Shown: positions 1 through 12,643 of the stretch, in pieces
Layout: the number at the start of each line of letters is the position of its first letter
Numbering within the stretch: the first letter of the stretch is position 1
IMG/VR virus record: IMGVR_UViG_3300032320_002688
Coordinates: 64,001 to 76,643 of that record
Strand: one strand, 5' to 3'
From: a virus
Lineage: Duplodnaviria; Heunggongvirae; Uroviricota; Caudoviricetes
DNA length: 12,643 bases
Notes under the pieces: generated by a model
Databases searched by the model: none
What the model saw: only the letters and a program-made list of their open reading frames with translations
Told to the model about the DNA's origin: nothing
Program-made: the position numbers and the translations under genes

Positions 1-2756
1 ACTGCTAAGTTAGCCATAGGATAAGCTGCTCCTTTTACTATATCTTTACCTAATTTAGAGGTATCTACTTTTTCGCCTGCTGCTTTTCTAGATTTAGCAT
101 CACTTATAGTACCAGCAATATTAGAAACTCCTTCAATACCTGCCATAATAGGACCTAAAAATTTGCCTATTACTTTTAAAGAACTTTTAACAGGACCTGC
201 AGCGGCCTCTAAACCAGCAGCACCTGCTTTTTTAATACCACCCCAAGCCCAACCACCAAAACTTTTAAGCCCACCCCATGCTTTACTTAAAAGACTGCCT
301 CCACCTTTCATTAAGCTTGAGCCCATACTTTTAAGTCCACCTAAAGCTTTGCTACCAACACCTTTTATTGAGTTCCATGCTTTTGAAAAAAATCCACCAC
401 CACCGCCACCACCACCACCTTTCGGGGCAGCACTAGGAGCAGCACTTGGTGCTTTAGGAGCTCCACCTGATTTTAAACCTTTAACATCTGAAGCAATATC
501 ACCAGCATCCATTCCTGTTTCCACCATTGCCGCATCATCATCACTCATCATTGATAATCCTAAACTAGAACCTAAACCAAGCAATGCACTACTTCTTCCT
601 CTTCCTCTTCCTCTTATTCTACCACCTCTACTACCTCTACCTCCTCTTCCTCTTCTACCTCTTCTTCCTCTTCTTCCACCTCCACCACCACCAGAGCCAC
701 CATCTCCACCAGACCCACCTCCAACAATATCAACATACGTTGGCCTACTAGGTGATTCACCTCTCTTACCCTTAAATACATTACCAAGATTTCTTATCAA
801 CATCATCCCACCACCTATTAAGGCACCAGCACCTATTACTACACCAAAAAGGCTACCTAATGAACTTACACCAGGTATTGCACCTAAGTAACCCATTATT
901 TTGCCAACAAAACCTAATGCAGATGCTAACCCATCAACCATAGCTCCTAAAGGACCTTCCATTAATGAGGTAAAACCATCTTTCATTTTCTGAACTGATT
1001 CTTCTAATTTCTGTTGGGAACTTACTTGTGCTTTAGATAATTCATAGCTTTTACCAGCTACAATTCCTGCTTCAATGTCGTCGGCTAGTTTTCCTTTGCC
1101 TTCTTTTCTCATCTTAGCAAGCTCATTTTTCTGGTTTGTGCCTATTTTAGCTAATTTTTCTTGCTTAATAAGGGAATTTGCTAATTCATCAGATGTCATA
1201 CCTAATGACTTAGCTAAGGCATCCTGCTGAATTCTATTCATTTGAGTAAATTCAGCTGATCCTTTTACATTTTTAAGTACTTCAGCAGCCGCACCTGCGG
1301 TGTCACCTTGCATTGCTAGATATCTTGCTTGATTTAAGTTAAGATCTTTGCCTATTAATGCTTCTGCTTCATATTCATTAGTTAATGAAGATTCAATATC
1401 AAGAAGTTGATCAGATATGTTTTTAGTTTGTTCTAAAGATAAGCCTAACTTTTGTGATTGAACAACAGCTTGAGCAATTAATTTAGGACTATTTTGATAG
1501 AATAAAGCTAATTGACCTGAGGTTTTAGCTACTTCTTGAATTATTTTTTTATTATTAAGTAAACCTTTGTTTTGTCCGGTAATATCCTTTAATACTTCTT
1601 CCTGACTTTGGCCTTGCAACATAGCATATTCTGAAATTTTAGCAGCTTCATCAGCTTGTAAACCTAAAACATCAGTTAATTCAACTTGTCCTTCAATTAA
1701 TTCAGCACTCATTATAGCTGTGGTGCCCATTGATTCGTTAAGTTGATTATTAGCCTCTAAAGCGCTGTGATTGTTAACACCTAATGCATGTGCGTTAGCA
1801 GCAATATCTCTAGTATAATCAACCATTGCTTTAGCGCCTTGGGCACTTACAGCATAATTCTTTCCAGTGTCGGCTATAGCTTTACTATAGGCCATTCCAA
1901 TATCAAAAAGTGATTTTGCTACTTTATATAATAAAGTTATTTGGACAAGAGGATCTTTTAATGAATTCATTAATCCCTTTCCTATACTTCCTAATCCTGC
2001 TCCTAATACACTCCATTTACTACTACCAGCTTCCTTAGCAGCACTTCTTAAGTCTTTGTTTATATCTTCAAAGTATTTACTTTGAATACCTACTTTTTCA
2101 AAAACTTTAGTAATACCACCCATTATACTTCCGGTAAGACCAAGAGATTTTTGGATGCGTTCTTCTTCTTTTCTTTCCTTTTCAGTTAAAGGAACTATTT
2201 GATTTAAATAACTTATTTTATCTTCTAATGCCTGAGATATTTCATCAGTGTAAGATGATATTTTTTTATATTCTTCTGTTTCTTTAGCTGATGCTTTTCC
2301 ACTTTTTATCTTAGCGGCTAATATATCTGCTTCTGCTTTGGCTTGTTTATAGTTAATGTCTAAAGCTTCTTTTTCCTTTTTAACCTTTTTTTCAAGTTCC
2401 TTTAATTCTTTAACAGTAAGAACATTTTCCTCTTCTCTGTGTTTTTGGAGTTTACCAGCTAAATCCTCTAATTTGTTGAAATTACGAGTTAGTAAGGTTG
2501 AAGTTTTAACACTCCCATTAATATCAGCAACTATATTTTTTAAAGTACTGGCAATGTTTCCAAAAGCATTTCTTAAATCATCAACTTCGCCTTCCATCAA
2601 TTTAATTTGTTTGGTAGCGTCTTGAAGATTATTCCCCAATGCTTGCACAACTTGGTTAACATTTTTAAAACCTTCACCACCCAAACGTTTAATTTCAGCG
2701 TCTAGTTCTTGAATGCGTTTTTTCGCGTTATTTAAGTCTTGTGTATTGTCTGCCAT
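1..2756 (-). CDS. Tail tape measure protein, partial (918 full codons in window; runs off the left edge)
   Basis: ATG at 2756 (MADNTQDLNNAKKRIQELDAEIKRLGG...), and the frame is open to position 1 by my hand translation. It has a long Ala/Glu/Lys/Gln-rich helical N-terminal part, a hydrophobic Gly/Ala/Leu stretch (956..795, GPLGAMVDGLASALGFVGKIMGYLGAIPGVSSLGSLFGVVIGAGALIGGGMMLI) and 11-residue Trp-containing repeats. It sits in the canonical position after sheath, tube and chaperone. Confidence 0.9.
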   Translation of the reverse strand, partial: MADNTQDLNNAKKRIQELDAEIKRLGGEGFKNVNQVVQALGNNLQDATKQIKLMEGEVDDLRNAFGNIASTLKNIVADINGSVKTSTLLTRNFNKLEDLAGKLQKHREEENVLTVKELKELEKKVKKEKEALDINYKQAKAEADILAAKIKSGKASAKETEEYKKISSYTDEISQALEDKISYLNQIVPLTEKERKEEERIQKSLGLTGSIMGGITKVFEKVGIQSKYFEDINKDLRSAAKEAGSSKWSVLGAGLGSIGKGLMNSLKDPLVQITLLYKVAKSLFDIGMAYSKAIADTGKNYAVSAQGAKAMVDYTRDIAANAHALGVNNHSALEANNQLNESMGTTAIMSAELIEGQVELTDVLGLQADEAAKISEYAMLQGQSQEEVLKDITGQNKGLLNNKKIIQEVAKTSGQLALFYQNSPKLIAQAVVQSQKLGLSLEQTKNISDQLLDIESSLTNEYEAEALIGKDLNLNQARYLAMQGDTAGAAAEVLKNVKGSAEFTQMNRIQQDALAKSLGMTSDELANSLIKQEKLAKIGTNQKNELAKMRKEGKGKLADDIEAGIVAGKSYELSKAQVSSQQKLEESVQKMKDGFTSLMEGPLGAMVDGLASALGFVGKIMGYLGAIPGVSSLGSLFGVVIGAGALIGGGMMLIRNLGNVFKGKRGESPSRPTYVDIVGGGSGGDGGSGGGGGGRRGRRGRRGRGGRGSRGGRIRGRGRGRSSALLGLGSSLGLSMMSDDDAAMVETGMDAGDIASDVKGLKSGGAPKAPSAAPSAAPKGGGGGGGGGFFSKAWNSIKGVGSKALGGLKSMGSSLMKGGGSLLSKAWGGLKSFGGWAWGGIKKAGAAGLEAAAGPVKSSLKVIGKFLGPIMAGIEGVSNIAGTISDAKSRKAAGEKVDTSKLGKDIVKGAAYPMANLA
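222..386 (-). repeat. 11-residue amphipathic repeats in the tape measure protein
   Basis: SKAWNSIKGVG / SKALGGLKSMG / SSLMKGGGSLL / SKAWGGLKSFG / GWAWGGIKKAG. An 11-aa period with aromatic anchors is typical of tape measure proteins. Confidence 0.75.
594..722 (-). repeat. Gly-rich linker followed by an RG/RGG low-complexity box in the tape measure protein
   Basis: GGGSGGDGGSGGGGGG then RRGRRGRRGRGGRGSRGGRIRGRGRGR (674..594; 14 Arg and 11 Gly in 27 aa). It appears on the + strand as a pyrimidine-rich cct/ctt tract. Confidence 0.85.
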
Positions 2757-6269: not shown

Positions 6270-6539
6270 CTAAGCAACAATAGCTTCTAATGCGCCTGTT
6301 TTTAAATCGATTTTATTATCACCATATTTTTCAGATATACGTTGAGATACTTCATATTCACCCTGTACAACTTGATTAAATTGAAGTTCTAACGTTTGCT
6401 TTTGGGCATCTAAACGTAATTTTTCATATTCAAGTTCGCCCAAGGCATATATTAAACTTTGCTTGGCTTGCTGAAGATCTTTAAGTTCTTTTAATTCTTC
6501 TTCGGTAATTGTGGTTGGTTTGTCTTGTATAATTCCCAT
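6270..6539 (-). CDS. Small coiled-coil protein of unknown function, 89 aa
   Basis: Heptad-like Leu/Gln/Glu helix followed by EKYGDNKIDLKTG. The ATG is 2 nt after the stop of the upstream enzyme, and the gene is on the same strand as its neighbours. Confidence 0.8.
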   Translation of the reverse strand: MGIIQDKPTTITEEELKELKDLQQAKQSLIYALGELEYEKLRLDAQKQTLELQFNQVVQGEYEVSQRISEKYGDNKIDLKTGALEAIVA

Positions 6540-6541
6540 AA

Positions 6542-8968
6542 TTAAAATTCTTTATTTCTCATGAATGAAACAATAATATATCTTTTACCATCTAAAACAG
6601 GGCGAGCGCCGTGTTTATGTGTAATATTTCCTGGATGGACACTTACATAGCCTTGTGGAGGTTTTGATAATTTCTTTTGGCGCCAAAACCAAGTACCACC
6701 ACCAAGATAATCTTCATCTTTTTCAGATAAATTTACTAATGCAGTAATATGTGAATGGTCGTGATGAATACTTAAATGTCCCTGAGTATCTGGTGTATAA
6801 CGTGCTAAAAAGTTTTCAGCAGTTAATTGATCCCAACCTTTGCCTTCCAAACCATATTTGTGTATTGCCATAGGCATAACAAATTCCCAAAGTAAATCAT
6901 AATAAATTTTATCAAACCCAATTTCAGTTAATACGAAATCAGTTGTAGGATAAAATTCATGACGAGCAAAAGTCCATACTTGAGCGTGTTCAGCTTCTTC
7001 AATTATTTTATTACAAAATTCTTTGGTAAACAAAGGATAGACAAAAGCTCCATCAAATTCTTCGTCAACAAATAAATCCCATTCTTTTTTAATTAAGCCA
7101 GGCACTAAAAATTTTCTATGCCATGCAGCAGTGTCGTTCCAGTATTGATATAACTCTGGATGCAACGGGGTATATTCCTTATCCATAATTTTTATTGTAA
7201 GTTTTGGTGTTTCTATTGGTGTTAAATGTATATTTTCTGTTTGTGATTTATTATCTTTTTGTACAACATATTCTATTGTAGTAGCAAATGCGTTTACTTT
7301 ACGATTGTCATGTTTATTTAATAAATCAATTACATCCGTTCTAAAATGAGTATCATATAGTGTAGGTAAAAATTCATCGGTAGGGATTAAATTTTCTTCT
7401 AATTTTTTGCTAATTAATATATCAACTCCATTTTTACTTAAAGCATAAGCATGAGCATTATATGAAAATAAAGGACGAACGAAATAGGCATTATGGTTTT
7501 GTTCAGGTAAATTTCTTATTAAATTTCTACCTAAATGAATTAAATCCCATTTATGTAATGATTGAATTATATCTTGATCAAAAGGTTGAGTAAATGAAAA
7601 ATCTTCTTCTAATATTAATACTGAATCAAATTTGTTTTCATATGCATCTTTCCAACATTTGATGTGAGATAAAACACATCCAATTTCTCCAGGAGTAATA
7701 TCTCGTTGGTGAAACTTAGATTCATCATTAAATTTTTTATCAATTCTATTTTGTTCAAATTCATCTCCTATTTTCCATCCATTCCAAGGTTTAAAATCGA
7801 ATCCTGGATTTGGATTTCTTCCATCAATTCCCTCTATAAAAGCTACTGATTCATATTCAATATTGCTTTCATCTAAACGTTTAAGAGCGTCTTGTTTATA
7901 TTCATCTGTTTTATCAAGTGATATAATATAAACACAATCAAAACTATAACAGCTATCTATAAATGATTTCCATACACACCCAATACGATCTATACTAAAT
8001 ACAGAAGCATATCTTTTATTATATCTTGCTCTATCATCCTGTGCCGGATAATCAATTATTTTAATTATATCAAGATAATATCCTAATTCTTCACCAGGAT
8101 GTTTGATAAATTCAGCAGTATGAATTATTTCTGGAAGTGCACCTATTGGTGATGTTATTATTTTACATCCAGCTAATTGTGCTTCAACAGCAGTTATACA
8201 AAATGTCTCTTCGTATTGGGTTGGGTAAAACCAATATTCTGCTTTGCTATATTCTTGGCGGAGTGTTTTAGTATCAACGTTACCAATAAAATGAACGTCC
8301 TTTAAATTTAGTTTCCTATACGTTTGATTAAATACATCTAAACCGTATTTGGGACAAAATACTTTTAATGTAGCATTTGGTTTTATATCTTTAATATAGT
8401 ACCAAAGTTCAAGTAAAGTATCTAATCCACGTTCAGGGTGTGATGAATATATAAATGAATCTTTTACCTTTTCTTCATCAGTAAAATTTGTTACATCAAC
8501 ACTATTATAAATTATTTTAATTTTATCTAGCGGATAATTATATTTTTCTGCTGTATTTTTTTTATGCCACTCAGAAACGCATATTATACCTGATAGTTTA
8601 GGTAATAAATCTCTACCTTCATTAGGTAAAGTTTCACCTTTATAATAAGGGTAATATTCTGTATTATGTAACCAAAGATAGGTTTTATTATAATCTACTT
8701 TATTTTCTATATCAAGTAAAAAATGTATATAACCTACACCAATTACAACATCATATTTTCTTTTAGTTTTCCAGAGTAATTCTCTATTAATATATTCTAC
8801 TCCATCAACAGACATTTCAGCAACGTCTCCTGTTACATAAACATTAAATTCTTTAGCAAGATATTTTACTGTATTAAGTAGTACCTGTTCGGTTCCACCA
8901 AGTTCTCTATCTATTGGTGAAAATAAGTTATCATAATAACCTATGTGGAATAAAACATTTAATTTCAT
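6542..8968 (-). CDS. Three-domain collagen-modifying enzyme candidate: GT4 glycosyltransferase + COLGALT-like GT25 + PLOD-like lysyl hydroxylase (808 aa from ATG 8968)
   Basis: The ORF track starts at TTG 8992. ATG 8968 lies 1 nt after the upstream TAG and is the more likely start. Three domain signatures are listed separately below. Confidence 0.88.
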   Translation of the reverse strand: MKLNVLFHIGYYDNLFSPIDRELGGTEQVLLNTVKYLAKEFNVYVTGDVAEMSVDGVEYINRELLWKTKRKYDVVIGVGYIHFLLDIENKVDYNKTYLWLHNTEYYPYYKGETLPNEGRDLLPKLSGIICVSEWHKKNTAEKYNYPLDKIKIIYNSVDVTNFTDEEKVKDSFIYSSHPERGLDTLLELWYYIKDIKPNATLKVFCPKYGLDVFNQTYRKLNLKDVHFIGNVDTKTLRQEYSKAEYWFYPTQYEETFCITAVEAQLAGCKIITSPIGALPEIIHTAEFIKHPGEELGYYLDIIKIIDYPAQDDRARYNKRYASVFSIDRIGCVWKSFIDSCYSFDCVYIISLDKTDEYKQDALKRLDESNIEYESVAFIEGIDGRNPNPGFDFKPWNGWKIGDEFEQNRIDKKFNDESKFHQRDITPGEIGCVLSHIKCWKDAYENKFDSVLILEEDFSFTQPFDQDIIQSLHKWDLIHLGRNLIRNLPEQNHNAYFVRPLFSYNAHAYALSKNGVDILISKKLEENLIPTDEFLPTLYDTHFRTDVIDLLNKHDNRKVNAFATTIEYVVQKDNKSQTENIHLTPIETPKLTIKIMDKEYTPLHPELYQYWNDTAAWHRKFLVPGLIKKEWDLFVDEEFDGAFVYPLFTKEFCNKIIEEAEHAQVWTFARHEFYPTTDFVLTEIGFDKIYYDLLWEFVMPMAIHKYGLEGKGWDQLTAENFLARYTPDTQGHLSIHHDHSHITALVNLSEKDEDYLGGGTWFWRQKKLSKPPQGYVSVHPGNITHKHGARPVLDGKRYIIVSFMRNKEF
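6554..7171 (-). other. Domain 3: PLOD-type lysyl hydroxylase (2OG-Fe(II) dioxygenase)
   Basis: YPLFTKEFCNKIIEEAEH, YPTTD, EIGFD, RYTPDTQGHLSIHHDHS, DYLGGG and HPGNITHKHGARPVLDGKRYIIVSF. From recall, these parallel PLOD1 FPIFTEVACDELVEEMEH, VPTID, QIGFE, RYKPDEQPSLMPHHDAS, DYEGGG and [25 protein letters not shown]. Intact Fe ligands are H743, D745 and H794, with 2OG-binding R804 (ORF-track numbering). Confidence 0.88.
7223..7945 (-). other. Domain 2: GT25 glycosyltransferase resembling procollagen galactosyltransferase (COLGALT)
   Basis: FDCVYIISL, EGIDG, ITPGEIGCVLSHIKCWK, LILEED, WDLIHLGR, SYNAHAYALS and IPTDEFLPTLYDTH. From recall, these parallel COLGALT1 FDEVFMINL, EAVDG, LTKGELGCFLSHYNIW, LVFEDD, WDLIYVGR, SYWTLAYVIS and LPVDEFLPVMFDKH. 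Confidence 0.8.
7955..8968 (-). other. Domain 1: GT-B fold family 4 (retaining) glycosyltransferase
   Basis: LGGTE, WLHN, CVSEWH, IYNSVD, YSSHPERGL and the E-x7-E motif ETFCITAVEAQLAG. Confidence 0.85.
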
Positions 8969-8969
8969 A

Positions 8970-9560
8970 CTATTTGTAGCTATCACCTCCAACCCATAAT
9001 ACTAATGATTTACGAGTACCTTGAGTTACTGGAGTTACACGATGTAAAATATAAGAAGGGAATACTAAAACACATCCTTTAATTTTAGGTAATGTTTCTG
9101 GATTTTTTCCTCTTAGAATCTGAAAATCACCTCCTTCATATTCATCATCTCCTGAAAGTTGAACTGTAATACTAATTTTTCTTTGATTTAATGGATATCC
9201 ACCTCCTACGTCTAAGTGATAGTCATAATGACCACCATCTTGATAATACTCAGTGTATTGGACTTGTTCATTCATTCCAGTAAGGGAAAATTTCCAAAGA
9301 GCATTATTTGCTTCGGTAACCATATCGCCTAACTTTTCATAAACCCATTTGTATCTATCAACTTGTGGAATCCATGCTATTGCACTTTTTCTCATTTCAT
9401 TATTTACTACACCAGCATCAGTAATACCAGCAGTAGTTAATCCCCAATTTGTAGATTCAGCAATAATTTGGTCTACTTCTTCACTTGTAAATCCAGTTTT
9501 AAACCAATACCATTCTAAAGGGTCGTGGGCTGTGTTTGATTGCAGTTGAAATTTATACAT
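8970..9560 (-). CDS. 2OG-Fe(II) oxygenase (PKHD-type / prolyl-hydroxylase-like), 196 aa
   Basis: HYDYHLD (HxD), RKISITVQLS, YEGGDF and FPSYILHRVTPVTQGTRKSLVLW (distal His and Arg). Confidence 0.9.
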   Translation of the reverse strand: MYKFQLQSNTAHDPLEWYWFKTGFTSEEVDQIIAESTNWGLTTAGITDAGVVNNEMRKSAIAWIPQVDRYKWVYEKLGDMVTEANNALWKFSLTGMNEQVQYTEYYQDGGHYDYHLDVGGGYPLNQRKISITVQLSGDDEYEGGDFQILRGKNPETLPKIKGCVLVFPSYILHRVTPVTQGTRKSLVLWVGGDSYK

Positions 9561-9598: not shown

Positions 9599-9622
9599 GA
9601 AGCGACCAACATTGGTCGCTTC
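9599..9622 (-). terminator. Terminator-like hairpin after the fibre gene
   Basis: Minus strand GAAGCGACCA-ATGT-TGGTCGCTTC (10-bp stem), followed by CTTTATTATATTT. Confidence 0.7.
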
Positions 9623-9646: not shown

Positions 9647-10003
9647 TTATCCTACTTTTTCCTTAAGTCTATCTACTTCTGCTTTTAATTCCTTAATAGC
9701 TTCGATTAACAATGGAACGATTTTTTCATACTGAACTGTGCGGAAATTCTCACCTGATTTAGATTTTTCAATTCTATTGCCGTTTTCGTCTTCAACATAT
9801 TCTCTATCGAATGGAGCTAATTTAACCGCTTCTGGTAATATTGCTTCTAATTCGTCTGCGAATACACCGACAATTCTACTTCTTGTATCGTATCCATAGC
9901 TTCCTGCTAATTCGTTATGGGTATAAGTTATACCATTTAACGTTTGTAATTTATCAAGAGCATTTTCAATTACTTTTACATTATCTTTTAATCTTCTATC
10001 TGA
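9647..10003 (-). other. Peptidase_S74 self-cleaving chaperone domain
   Basis: SDRRLK (Ser/Lys i, i+5 dyad), [28 protein letters not shown] and the terminal coiled coil [15 protein letters not shown]. Confidence 0.92.
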
Positions 10004-12643
10004 GTAATAAGCAACGATTTCACCTGATGCTAAGATATCACCTGGAGATCCATAATATCCTAAACCAACACCTAAGGCATTTAATGCTTGGTTTGTTGGG
10101 CCTGGAGGACCTGTTGGGCCTTGTGGACCTTGAGGACCAGGAGCACCTGTACCACCACCAGGGCCTTGAGGACCTGGGGCACCAGTACCACCTGTATTAC
10201 CTTTGTTACCTTGAGCACCTTGAGCACCCTGTGGACCTGTTGGACCAGGAGCACCAACTCCACCACCAGGACCTGTTGGGCCTATTTCACCCTTTTGTCC
10301 TTTAGCACCTGTACCACCACCAGGACCTGTTGGACCTACGTTACCTTGAGGACCTGTTGGACCAGGAGAACCAGTATTACCTTTGTTACCTTGAGGGCCT
10401 TGAGCACCTGTTGGACCTACGTTACCTTGGGCACCAACTTCACCTTTTTGGCCTTTAGCACCTTGAGGACCTGTAGCACCTTGAGGACCTACGTTACCTT
10501 GAGGACCTGTTGCTCCTGGAGCACCTGTTGGACCTACGTTACCTTGAGGACCGGTTGAGCCTATTTCCCCCTTTTGTCCTTTAGCACCTTGAGGACCTGT
10601 TGGACCAGGAGAACCTGTTGGACCTACGTTACCTTGAGGACCTGTTGGACCTGGAGAACCTGTAGCACCCGTTGCACCTTTAGCACCTGCATTACCTTGA
10701 GGGCCAGGACCACCTGTTGGACCTGTAGGACCAGTTGAACCAGTATTACCTTTTGCACCTTGAGGACCTTGAGGACCTGTTGGACCTAAGTTACCTTTTG
10801 CACCTTGTGGACCTGTTGGACCTACGTTACCTTGAGGACCTGTAGCACCTTGAGCTCCAGTATTACCTTTAGCACCTTGAGCACCTTGAGCACCTTGTGG
10901 ACCAGGAGCACCTGTACCACCTTGAGCACCTGTAGCACCCTTAACACCTTGAGGACCTGTAGGACCTGTTGGGCCTAAATCACCTTTTGCACCTGTTGGA
11001 CCTGTTGGACCTACGTTACCTTGAGGACCTGTAGAACCAGTAGAACCTTTAGCACCAGTATTACCTTGTGGACCAGGAGCACCTGTAGCACCTGAAGAAC
11101 CACTTGTGCCTGATGAACCTGAAGTTCCGTTAGCACCTGCGTTACCTTGAGCACCTTGAGGTCCAGGAGCACCTGTATTACCTTTAGCACCTGTATTACC
11201 TTGAGGACCTGTAGCGCCTGATGTGCCTGAAGATCCACTTGAACCTGATGTACCTGATGAACCACTATTACCTACTTCACCTTTTTGTCCTTTAGCACCT
11301 TGAGGACCTGTAGCACCTGAAGTACCACTTGAACCTGATGTACCGCTTGAACCTGATGAACCTGATGTTCCTGATGAACCTGATGAACCTGATGTTCCTG
11401 ATGAACCACTTGTTCCACTTGAACCTGATGATCCTGAAGTTCCGCTTGAACCTGAAGTTCCGCTTGAACCTGATGATCCTGAAGTTCCGCTTGAACCAGA
11501 TGAGCCTGATGTTCCTGAAGAACCAGATGTACCTGATGAACCAGATGAACCTGAAGATCCACTTGAACCTGAAGTTCCAGATGAACCAGAAGTTCCTGAT
11601 GTACCACTTGAACCCGAGCTACCTGAAGTGCCTGATGAGCCACTTGAACCAGATGAACCTGATGTACCTGAAGAACCAGATGAACCTGAGCTACCTGAAG
11701 TTCCACTTGCACCGTCTATTCCACTTGTACCACTTGTACCACTTGAACCTGATGTTCCTGAAGAACCTGATGTACCACTAGTTCCTGAAGAACCTGATGT
11801 ACCACTTGAACCTGAAGTTCCTGATGAACCTGACGTACCATTAGTTCCTGATGATCCACTTGAACCTGATGTTCCACTTGTTCCCGAAGAACCGCTTGTT
11901 CCACTCGTTCCATTTGTGCCAGAAGTACCATTTGTTCCTGATGAACCTGAGGTTCCTGAAGTACCATTTGTTCCTGAAGAACCTGAAGTTCCACTTGTAC
12001 CAGACGTTCCGTTTGTTCCAGAAGTACCTGAGGTTCCGCTGGTTCCTGAAGTTCCATCTGTACCACTTGTTCCTGACGAACCTGAAGTTCCTGAAGAACC
12101 ACTAGTTCCTGAAGTTCCACTTGTACCAGACGTTCCGTTTGTTCCAGAAGTACCTGAGGTTCCGCTGGTTCCTGAAGTTCCATCTGTACCACTTGTTCCT
12201 GACGAACCTGAAGTTCCTGAAGTTCCTGAAGAACCACTAGTTCCTGAAGTTCCGTCTGTACCACTTGTTCCTGACGAACCTGAAGTTCCTGACGAACCTG
12301 AAGTTCCTGAAGAACCTGAAGTTCCTGATGAACCACTTGTTCCTGATGATCCACTTGTTCCTGATGTACCATCTGTTCCACTAGTTCCTGATGAACCTGA
12401 AGTACCACTTGTTCCTGAAGAACCACTTGTTCCAGACGTTCCATTAGTTCCTGATGAACCACTTGTTCCTGATGTACCATCTGTTCCACTAGTTCCTGAT
12501 GAACCTGAAGTACCACTAGTTCCTGAAGAACCACTTGTTCCTGATGAACCACTTGAACCTGAAGTTCCACTAGTTCCTGATGTTCCGTCTGTACCACTAG
12601 TTCCTGATGAACCACTTGTTCCTGATGAACCACTTGTTCCTGA
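9647..12643 (-). CDS. Giant collagen-like fibre protein with C-terminal Peptidase_S74 intramolecular chaperone, partial (998 aa in window; start lies beyond the right edge)
   Basis: The frame from 12643 (S-GTS-GSS...) to TAA at 9649..9647 is exactly 999 codons. Gly codons stay in 9-nt phase at 12640, 11317, 11281 and 10102. The protein ends ...[44 protein letters not shown]...[27 protein letters not shown]. Confidence 0.93.
10094..11317 (-). repeat. Pro/Lys-containing collagen triple-helix repeat, 136 Gly-X-Y triplets
   Basis: Hand translation: GPQ, GPT, GAT, GNV, GAP and GAK triplets without interruption. GAKGQKGE[VI] occurs four times. Confidence 0.95.
11982..12222. repeat. Perfect 115-bp direct repeat, period 126 bp
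   Basis: 11982..12096 is identical to 12108..12222, including rare synonymous codons. Confidence 0.85.
12351..12541. repeat. 83-bp direct repeat with 1 mismatch, period 108 bp
   Basis: 12351..12433 versus 12459..12541, differing only at 12410/12518. Confidence 0.8.

Follow-up and report, generated by a model that had tools for sequence, protein, structure and literature searches.

A three-domain phage enzyme predicted to hydroxylate and glycosylate lysines of a collagen-like tail fibre, with a GT4 domain as candidate second glycosyltransferase

The final 12.6 kb of the 76,643-base IMG/VR record IMGVR_UViG_3300032320_002688, a tailed-phage record that CheckV scores as 46% complete, was analysed as one stretch of 12,643 nucleotides (positions 64,001 to 76,643 of the record; hereafter the window). 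An open reading frame (ORF) at 6542-8968 on the minus strand of this window encodes an 808-residue protein that joins a GT4 glycosyltransferase (GT) domain (residues 1-340), a GT25 domain (341-590), and a PLOD-type lysyl hydroxylase (LH) domain (591-808), and it lies within a tail module close to the gene for a collagen-like fibre. We consider it highly likely that this protein hydroxylates and glycosylates lysines of the fibre in some form. The more specific proposal, that the GT4 domain is the second-sugar enzyme of a trifunctional fibre-maturing protein, we regard on comparative sequence evidence as evenly balanced between true and false. The three domains are located as follows.

7949..8968, minus strand: GT4 domain, aa 1-340, GT-B fold, retaining-type (Pfam, AF2 model, Foldseek, E254-x7-E262)
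7199..7948, minus strand: GT25 domain, aa 341-590, GT-A of the COLGALT1/L230 type (PF01755, 66.3 bits; COLGALT1 similarity)
6545..7198, minus strand: PLOD-type LH domain, aa 591-808, similar to LH3 and L230 over the whole domain

The ORF as listed extends over 6542-8992 from a TTG, and we favoured the ATG at 8968 as the likely start of the 808-residue protein, because relatives start there in the alignment, GGAGGTGA lies upstream, and the position falls one base past the stop of the upstream gene. Residue numbers in the initial annotation (E262/E270, H743/D745) belong to the TTG frame and are eight higher than those used here. All Pfam matches exceeded their curated cut-offs: Glyco_transf_25 scored 66.3 bits (cut-off 24), Glycos_transf_1 45.6 (26.4), Glyco_transf_4 30.1 (28.5), and OGFOD2-like 41.3 (31). 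These matches covered residues ~1-330 for the GT4-type families, 354-481 for GT25, and 605-812 for the OGFOD2-like/2-oxoglutarate (2OG) oxygenase C terminus (TTG frame). The PLOD-type GT family (PF25342) was not matched in the 808-residue protein by the Pfam scan; if the GT4 domain performs the step of that enzyme, it would be an analogue and not a member of the PLOD-type GT family.

The hydroxylase domain showed the clearest kinship. In phmmer searches of the PDB, residues 601-803 matched the hydroxylase domain of human LH3/PLOD3 (LH3 residues 502-713; E 2.4e-27) and that of mimivirus L230 (E 3e-24), so the grouping with PLOD/L230 on which the initial annotation had staked its proposal was borne out. 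The presumptive Fe ligands, H735-x-D737 with the distal H786, and the 2OG-binding R796 aligned with the iron triad and arginine of LH3, which we take to be H667, D669, H719, and R729. Residues 416-542 matched COLGALT1 (E 6e-14 by phmmer against the PDB; E 3.7e-15 in the motif alignment), with GEIGCVLSH (427-435) on GELGCFLSH, E454-E-D456 of the LEED motif (453-456) on FEDD, and PTDEFLP (529-535) on PVDEFLP. In COLGALT1, E435-x-D437 has been identified as the E-x-D that genuinely binds metal in the catalytic GalT-C domain (PMC11897130), and this element is kept in the phage protein, as expected for the GT25 identity that had been proposed. Across 26 full-length relatives of 32-43% identity, E254, E262, G427, G430, C431, H435, E454, D456, D531, H735, D737, H784, H786, and R796 were invariant, and E254 and E262 were also invariant across 53 GT4 domains. 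Judged from these alignments, the invariance of the catalytic residues far exceeds chance. The three catalytic signatures read in tandem from the letters by the initial annotation were thus all present and conserved, and the hidden Markov model domain calls agreed with them. By homology and by its Fe and 2OG residues, domain 3 belongs to the PLOD-type collagen lysyl hydroxylases and is predicted to hydroxylate lysine; by PF01755, GalT-C homology, and motifs, domain 2 belongs to the COLGALT1/L230-type GT25 enzymes and is predicted to transfer a hexose.

The N-terminal domain was modelled with AlphaFold (AF2) as a confident two-Rossmann GT-B enzyme (pLDDT 94, pTM 0.91), which, together with the Pfam matches and the E-x7-E motif, places it in CAZy family GT4. 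A retaining mechanism is expected from this family membership. Foldseek searches with the model returned only retaining GT4/GT5 GT-B enzymes, including MshA, BshA, PimA, Tll1591, SdgB, and CotSA, at TM ~0.7 (0.67-0.75) and 12-19% identity, with E values of 1e-14 to 1e-12 for the top matches. A profile search of solved structures and two Foldseek searches yielded nothing nearer in acceptor than generic retaining GT-B enzymes, and because the matches share only 12-19% identity, the acceptor is not readable from structure. Tll1591, an alpha-1,2-glucosyltransferase, was among the top matches; it scored no better than the others, and we drew nothing from it. The full-length AF2 model had confident domains (pLDDT 86) joined by low-confidence linkers at ~290-310 and 586-588, with a pTM of 0.53, and gave no confident arrangement of the whole chain.

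We propose that the 808-residue enzyme would act within the infected cell to mature the collagen-like tail fibre that the phage itself encodes. In this scheme the PLOD-type domain would hydroxylate Y-position lysines (X-Lys-Gly) to hydroxylysine (Hyl), using Fe2+, 2OG, and O2; the inverting GT25, a homologue of COLGALT1 and of the L230 transferase half, would put a beta-linked hexose on the Hyl oxygen; and the retaining GT-B enzyme GT4 would add a second, alpha-linked sugar onto that hexose. GT4 would thereby fill the role that a PLOD-type GT has in animal LH3, in mimivirus R699, and in a sister phage family described below. The substrate, the sugars, the order of transfer, and the linkages are all predictions of this scheme.

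The presumed substrate is encoded in the same module, upstream of the enzyme gene and separated from it by one small gene, and its parts are as follows.

9647..12643, minus strand: collagen-like tail fibre gene, 998 aa visible, 5' end cut by the end of the record
11309..12640, minus strand: Ser/Thr-rich collagen repeat, first 148 triplets, without Lys or Pro (GTS 77, GSS 55, GTN 7, GTD 6)
10094..11308, minus strand: Lys-bearing collagen repeat, last 135 triplets, with 18 Lys, 12 Pro in Y, and 47 Pro in X
9821..10003, minus strand: Peptidase_S74 (endosialidase-type intramolecular chaperone) domain at the fibre C terminus (Pfam PF13884, E 7e-13)

The visible fibre contains 283 uninterrupted G-X-Y triplets, and its C-terminal part matches PHROG tail-fibre families as well as the Pfam Collagen and Peptidase_S74 domains. 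All 18 of its lysines stand in Y (GAK, GQK, GNK, GVK), which is the X-Lys-Gly site of collagen lysyl hydroxylases. This arrangement was general among related loci, of which we fetched 226 from IMG/VR and scored the ORFs with family-specific profiles, most of the contigs being fragments. Where at least 3 kb lay upstream of the enzyme gene, a collagen-like ORF of at least 20 triplets was present in 70 of 82 loci. Over 112 distinct collagen-like ORFs beside homologous enzymes (24,731 triplets), Y held 5,870 lysines and X held 60 (99% in Y). Arginine was split evenly (227 in Y, 245 in X), so the Y bias is specific to lysine and not a general preference for basic residues. The bias fits selection for the site of collagen lysyl hydroxylases.

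The same loci show that GT4, GT25, and the hydroxylase are kept together while the way they are fused changes. Among 141 distinct enzymes, 74 had the architecture GT4-GT25-LH, 39 were GT4-LH, and 25 were GT25-LH. Complete GT25-LH genes were directly flanked by a separate GT4 gene in 15 of 17 cases, often with an overlap of a few bases; of the remaining two, one (L181) has a GT4 elsewhere on its contig, and in the other (L194), a 45%-complete fragment, none was found. For the GT4-LH loci, GT25 was not found within 10 kb. The idea that GT4-LH phages lack GT25 was nonetheless ruled out, since each of the five near-complete GT4-LH genomes tested has a stand-alone GT25 at another site, scoring 189-207 bits (E 1e-59 to 1e-64) on a profile built from the fused GT25 domains. 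Conversely, a second GT25 was absent from all five genomes examined that have a fused one. In one of the GT4-LH genomes (G002), the stand-alone collagen-type GT25 is tandemly duplicated within a single 491-aa GT25-GT25 protein (L231:1059-2531, plus strand). A tree of the hydroxylase domains implied about six architecture changes, and its starred branches force at least four. Because the triad is co-conserved through several fusion and fission events, we read it, from gene content, as the classical sign of one pathway. Outside these IMG/VR relatives, a tblastn search of 50,697 phage records did not find the three-domain protein and gave only partial single-domain matches, such as that of the GT25 part to a "hypothetical protein" of Synechococcus phage S-CAM9 at 34.5 kb. 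Megablast of the window gave matches only to the fibre repeat DNA.

The evidence that most directly concerns the GT4 role came from a second family. An exhaustive profile search together with Pfam scans showed that the hydroxylase and GT25 modules are also combined with a PLOD-type GT (PF25342), in a large sister family of ~620-aa proteins with the order GT25-PLOD GT-LH; one such gene is carried by a 174,830-base IMG/VR record (L292). Twenty members were aligned (A5), 80 viral loci were fetched, and 66 distinct loci (1.07 Mb) were scored. A GT4-family ORF lay in the flanks of only one of these 66 loci, as against 15 of the 17 GT25-LH loci (Fisher p 1.7e-13, a value that overstates independence, as the lineages are related). 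In the other direction, the 226 GT4-type loci gave no match to the PLOD-type GT, and PF25342 was absent from all three GT4-type genomes that are at least 90% complete. Phage loci that combine GT25 with the hydroxylase thus have a PLOD-type GT or a GT4 as their third module; the two almost never occur together, and, as far as contig completeness allows, one of them is always there. The PLOD-type GT of LH3 and of mimivirus R699 glucosylates Gal-Hyl, i.e., galactosyl-Hyl (PMC9546862, PMC12279948). Given this role and the mutual exclusion, the simplest reading is that GT4 does the equivalent job, as a non-orthologous replacement of the PLOD-type GT. The initial annotation had suggested such a replacement for the PLOD3 glucosyltransferase, and that part gains comparative support; its sequence of galactose (Gal) followed by glucose (Glc) forms no part of the support. 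We put forward more tentatively the stronger claim that the GT4 domain is a convergent, GT-B-fold glycosyltransferase of the Gal-Hyl type, a second independent solution for the Hyl-linked disaccharide, which we hold to be somewhat less probable than its being wrong.

Several considerations count against assigning the second sugar to GT4. We know of no GT4 enzyme that acts on a Hyl-linked sugar. Some GT4 enzymes attach sugar directly to Ser in repeat proteins; one of these, SdgB, appears among the Foldseek matches to the GT4 model, and the fibre of the window's clade offers 148 GTS/GSS-type triplets. Relatives of the GT4-GT25 pair also occur without a hydroxylase inside multi-GT proteins, one of them beside Lys-free GST/GAT collagen-like ORFs. 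The full-length model predicts no confident inter-domain geometry, the exclusion statistic counts related lineages and not independent events, and most contigs are fragments. Finally, mimivirus L230 puts Glc, not Gal, directly on Hyl (PMC9546862), and for that reason "Gal then Glc" is an assumption. GT4 might instead glycosylate Ser/Thr of the fibre directly, for instance in the GTS/GSS block or at the 42 Thr in Y, leaving only the hydroxylase and GT25 to act on Lys and the Hyl glycan a monosaccharide, as with L230. However, Ser/Thr-rich blocks occur only in the window's clade and a few others. GT4 is found, fused or in an adjacent gene, in all lineages of the family, including those in which Ser and Thr make up just 4-10% of the X and Y positions of the fibre and such a block is missing; nor does direct Ser/Thr transfer predict the near absence of GT4 where a PLOD-type GT is fused. 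We therefore judged it unlikely that the clade-specific repeats are a conserved GT4 target. The initial annotation had offered Ser/Thr glycosylation as its own alternative, and we regard that alternative as weakened and improbable overall, although it retains some support from the block itself and from the hydroxylase-free protein beside Lys-free collagen-like ORFs.

The order of the two transfers could also be reversed, with GT4 putting a first, alpha-linked sugar on Hyl and GT25 extending it, as GT25 enzymes do on lipopolysaccharide (LPS) core sugars. Sugar acceptors are common among GT25 enzymes, the Pfam GT25 family is named for LPS biosynthesis, and in the lineage of GT4-LH fusions it is GT4 that is kept nearest to the hydroxylase while GT25 is encoded far away. 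Against this, GT25-LH fusions are equally common by our calls, the sister family retains GT25 while its PLOD-type GT, a sugar-to-sugar enzyme, alternates with GT4, and the two relatives of this GT25 subfamily that have been characterised, COLGALT1 and L230, both use Hyl itself as their acceptor (PMC9546862, PMC11897130). We consider the reversed order rather less probable still than direct Ser/Thr transfer. That the enzyme modifies host envelope glycans or other proteins rather than the fibre seems very remote: automatic source annotations read "LPS biosynthesis" and "cell wall biosynthesis," and GT4 and GT25 are, by their family descriptions, common in LPS pathways, but the hydroxylase domain is homologous over its whole length to protein-lysine hydroxylases, the gene sits inside the tail structural module, and it is strictly syntenic with genes for collagen-like fibres, in which 99% of the lysines occupy Y.

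Set beside known systems, the proposed second-sugar pathway resembles that of human LH3/PLOD3 with COLGALT1/GLT25D1, which converts Lys to Hyl, Gal-Hyl, and Glc-Gal-Hyl (PDB 6fxk, 8zgc, 9evj). Homology between the hydroxylases spans the whole domain and includes the Fe and 2OG ligands, which are the same in both; the phage GT25 is homologous to the catalytic GalT-C domain and shares its E-x-D (PMC11897130), and the substrate motif X-Lys-Gly is present in the phage fibre. The human enzymes form a two-protein complex in the endoplasmic reticulum, whereas the phage enzyme is one polypeptide that would work in the bacterial cytoplasm; it lacks the PLOD-type GT and the accessory domain of LH3 and has a GT-B GT4 where the GT-A PLOD-type GT would be expected. 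The closest viral system is that of Acanthamoeba polyphaga mimivirus, which encodes its own full modification set (PMC9546862): L230, a lysyl hydroxylase and Hyl glucosyltransferase (PDB 6ax6), with the Gal-Hyl glucosyltransferase R699 and with R655. L230 is likewise a viral fusion of a glycosyltransferase with a PLOD-type hydroxylase that acts on viral collagen-like proteins (for the phage enzyme such a substrate is presumed). It has no GT4, and there the second sugar comes from the separate PLOD-type GT R699 (PMC9546862, PMC12279948); mimivirus also has a eukaryotic host, whereas here the three modules are in one chain and in a phage. The sister GT25-PLOD GT-LH family shares the GT25 and hydroxylase modules and the marine phage setting, and differs in its third module, a PLOD-type GT-A domain between GT25 and the hydroxylase instead of an N-terminal GT4. 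The retaining enzymes MshA, BshA, PimA, Tll1591, and SdgB share the fold, the E-x7-E motif, and the Pfam families of the phage GT4, at only 12-16% identity to it; none of them has a fused hydroxylase, and none is known to use collagen as a substrate.

The remaining genes of the window fit this setting. All are on the minus strand and together form a myophage tail module: the collagen-like fibre, a 196-aa 2OG oxygenase, the 808-aa ORF, an 89-aa ORF, tail sheath, tail tube, a baseplate hub protein, and a tape-measure-like protein. The nearest relative of the tail sheath is that of Flavobacterium phage vB_FspM_immuto, a 160-kb phage (50% identity), and the window is ~30% G+C; these two features suggest a myophage of marine Bacteroidota. 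Four further features were noted.

8970..9560, minus strand: 196-aa 2OG-Fe(II) oxygenase of the prolyl-4-hydroxylase/PiuC type (Pfam PF13640, E 2e-13)
9599..9622, no strand assigned: perfect G+C-rich hairpin of 10 bp with a T-run behind it, within the 86 nt that separate the fibre gene from the enzyme genes
6270..6539, minus strand: 89-aa ORF between the enzyme and tail sheath genes, with a weak coiled-coil match only
3-2756, minus strand: tape-measure-like protein with, in its C-terminal third, a long low-complexity Gly/Arg tract (a poly-Gly run, then RRGRRGRRGRGGRGSRGGRIRGRGRGRS) as well as poly-Gly runs

These Gly-rich stretches of the tape-measure-like protein explain why the start of the window has a strongly negative GC skew and is rich in G+C. 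The scan that contained the hairpin at 9599-9622 gave five terminator-like sites where 1.4 were expected. The hairpin may be a partial or attenuating terminator that lowers expression of the enzyme genes and so gives a high fibre-to-enzyme ratio.

The 196-aa oxygenase, whose PDB matches are PiuC (3e-7) and a prolyl 4-hydroxylase (0.0035), directly precedes the enzyme gene, which starts one base after it, and a homologue adjoins the enzyme gene in 59 of the 82 related loci with at least 3 kb upstream. It would probably hydroxylate fibre prolines. Proline in the 112 collagen-like ORFs (loci L002-L226) was mostly in X (5,412, with only 396 in Y), so that, despite the near-constant adjacent oxygenase, these fibres seldom offer the X-Pro-Gly site that is classical for collagen prolyl 4-hydroxylases. 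Outside the window, the same record encodes a stand-alone 224-aa 2OG oxygenase (G000:C1:33613-34284, minus strand; locus L239:614-1285) for which the best match of solved structure is human prolyl 3-hydroxylase 1 (E 2.2e-11); the 47 X-position prolines of the window fibre stand where that enzyme class acts in animal collagen. Two more glycosyltransferase genes lie on this record ~45-50 kb from the fibre, both on the minus strand: a Glycos_transf_1 match in a 486-aa frame (G000:C1:25982-26392) and a Glycos_transf_2 match in a 216-aa frame (23395-23772). Their target could be the Ser/Thr-rich block of the fibre, or a different one.

Some more distant cassettes were also seen. The hydroxylase-free protein mentioned above is a 1,255-aa GT2-GT4-GT25 enzyme on a 148-kb virus contig with a B-family DNA polymerase (L237:1-9670 and 10001-13768), and its gene comes directly after the collagen-like ORFs, which consist of GST/GAT/GAD triplets and contain no lysine. 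In other related proteins (P0149, P0233), the GT4-GT25 cassette is combined with GT10 fucosyltransferase and methyltransferase domains. A scan with the single protein P0191 found nothing in viral contigs; the contig of P0191 itself resembles that of a large eukaryotic virus.

Full-text literature searches found no description of PLOD-type hydroxylases or of Hyl glycosylation in phages. Iyer et al. 2010 (PMC2938197) made no more than a general prediction that collagen-like proteins are modified by bacterial dioxygenases. The animal and mimivirus pathway of collagen lysine modification is known; what this analysis adds is the conserved GT4/GT25/hydroxylase triad and the exclusion between GT4 and the PLOD-type GT, and the exclusion pattern makes the GT4 role a question that can be tested directly at the bench. 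Glycosylated collagen cannot yet be made in bacteria, partly since the human enzymes express poorly (PMC9546862). If our proposal is true, a single soluble phage polypeptide with all three activities would be an obvious candidate tool, which could yield hydroxylated and glycosylated recombinant collagen in E. coli.

Hyl-linked Glc-Gal is regarded as a hallmark of animal collagen, and mimivirus was the sole published outlier that we found. Together with its relatives, which number in the hundreds, the locus described here indicates that the same chemistry operates on the fibres of tailed phages, and the third step appears to have been solved twice in phages, by a PLOD-type GT or by GT4, which bears on the origin of collagen-modifying enzymes. 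If true, Flavobacteria-type marine phages would display animal-like, di-glycosylated Hyl on their tail fibres, made by one bacterially expressible polypeptide, and fibres glycosylated in this way may affect adsorption, stability, or evasion of host proteases.

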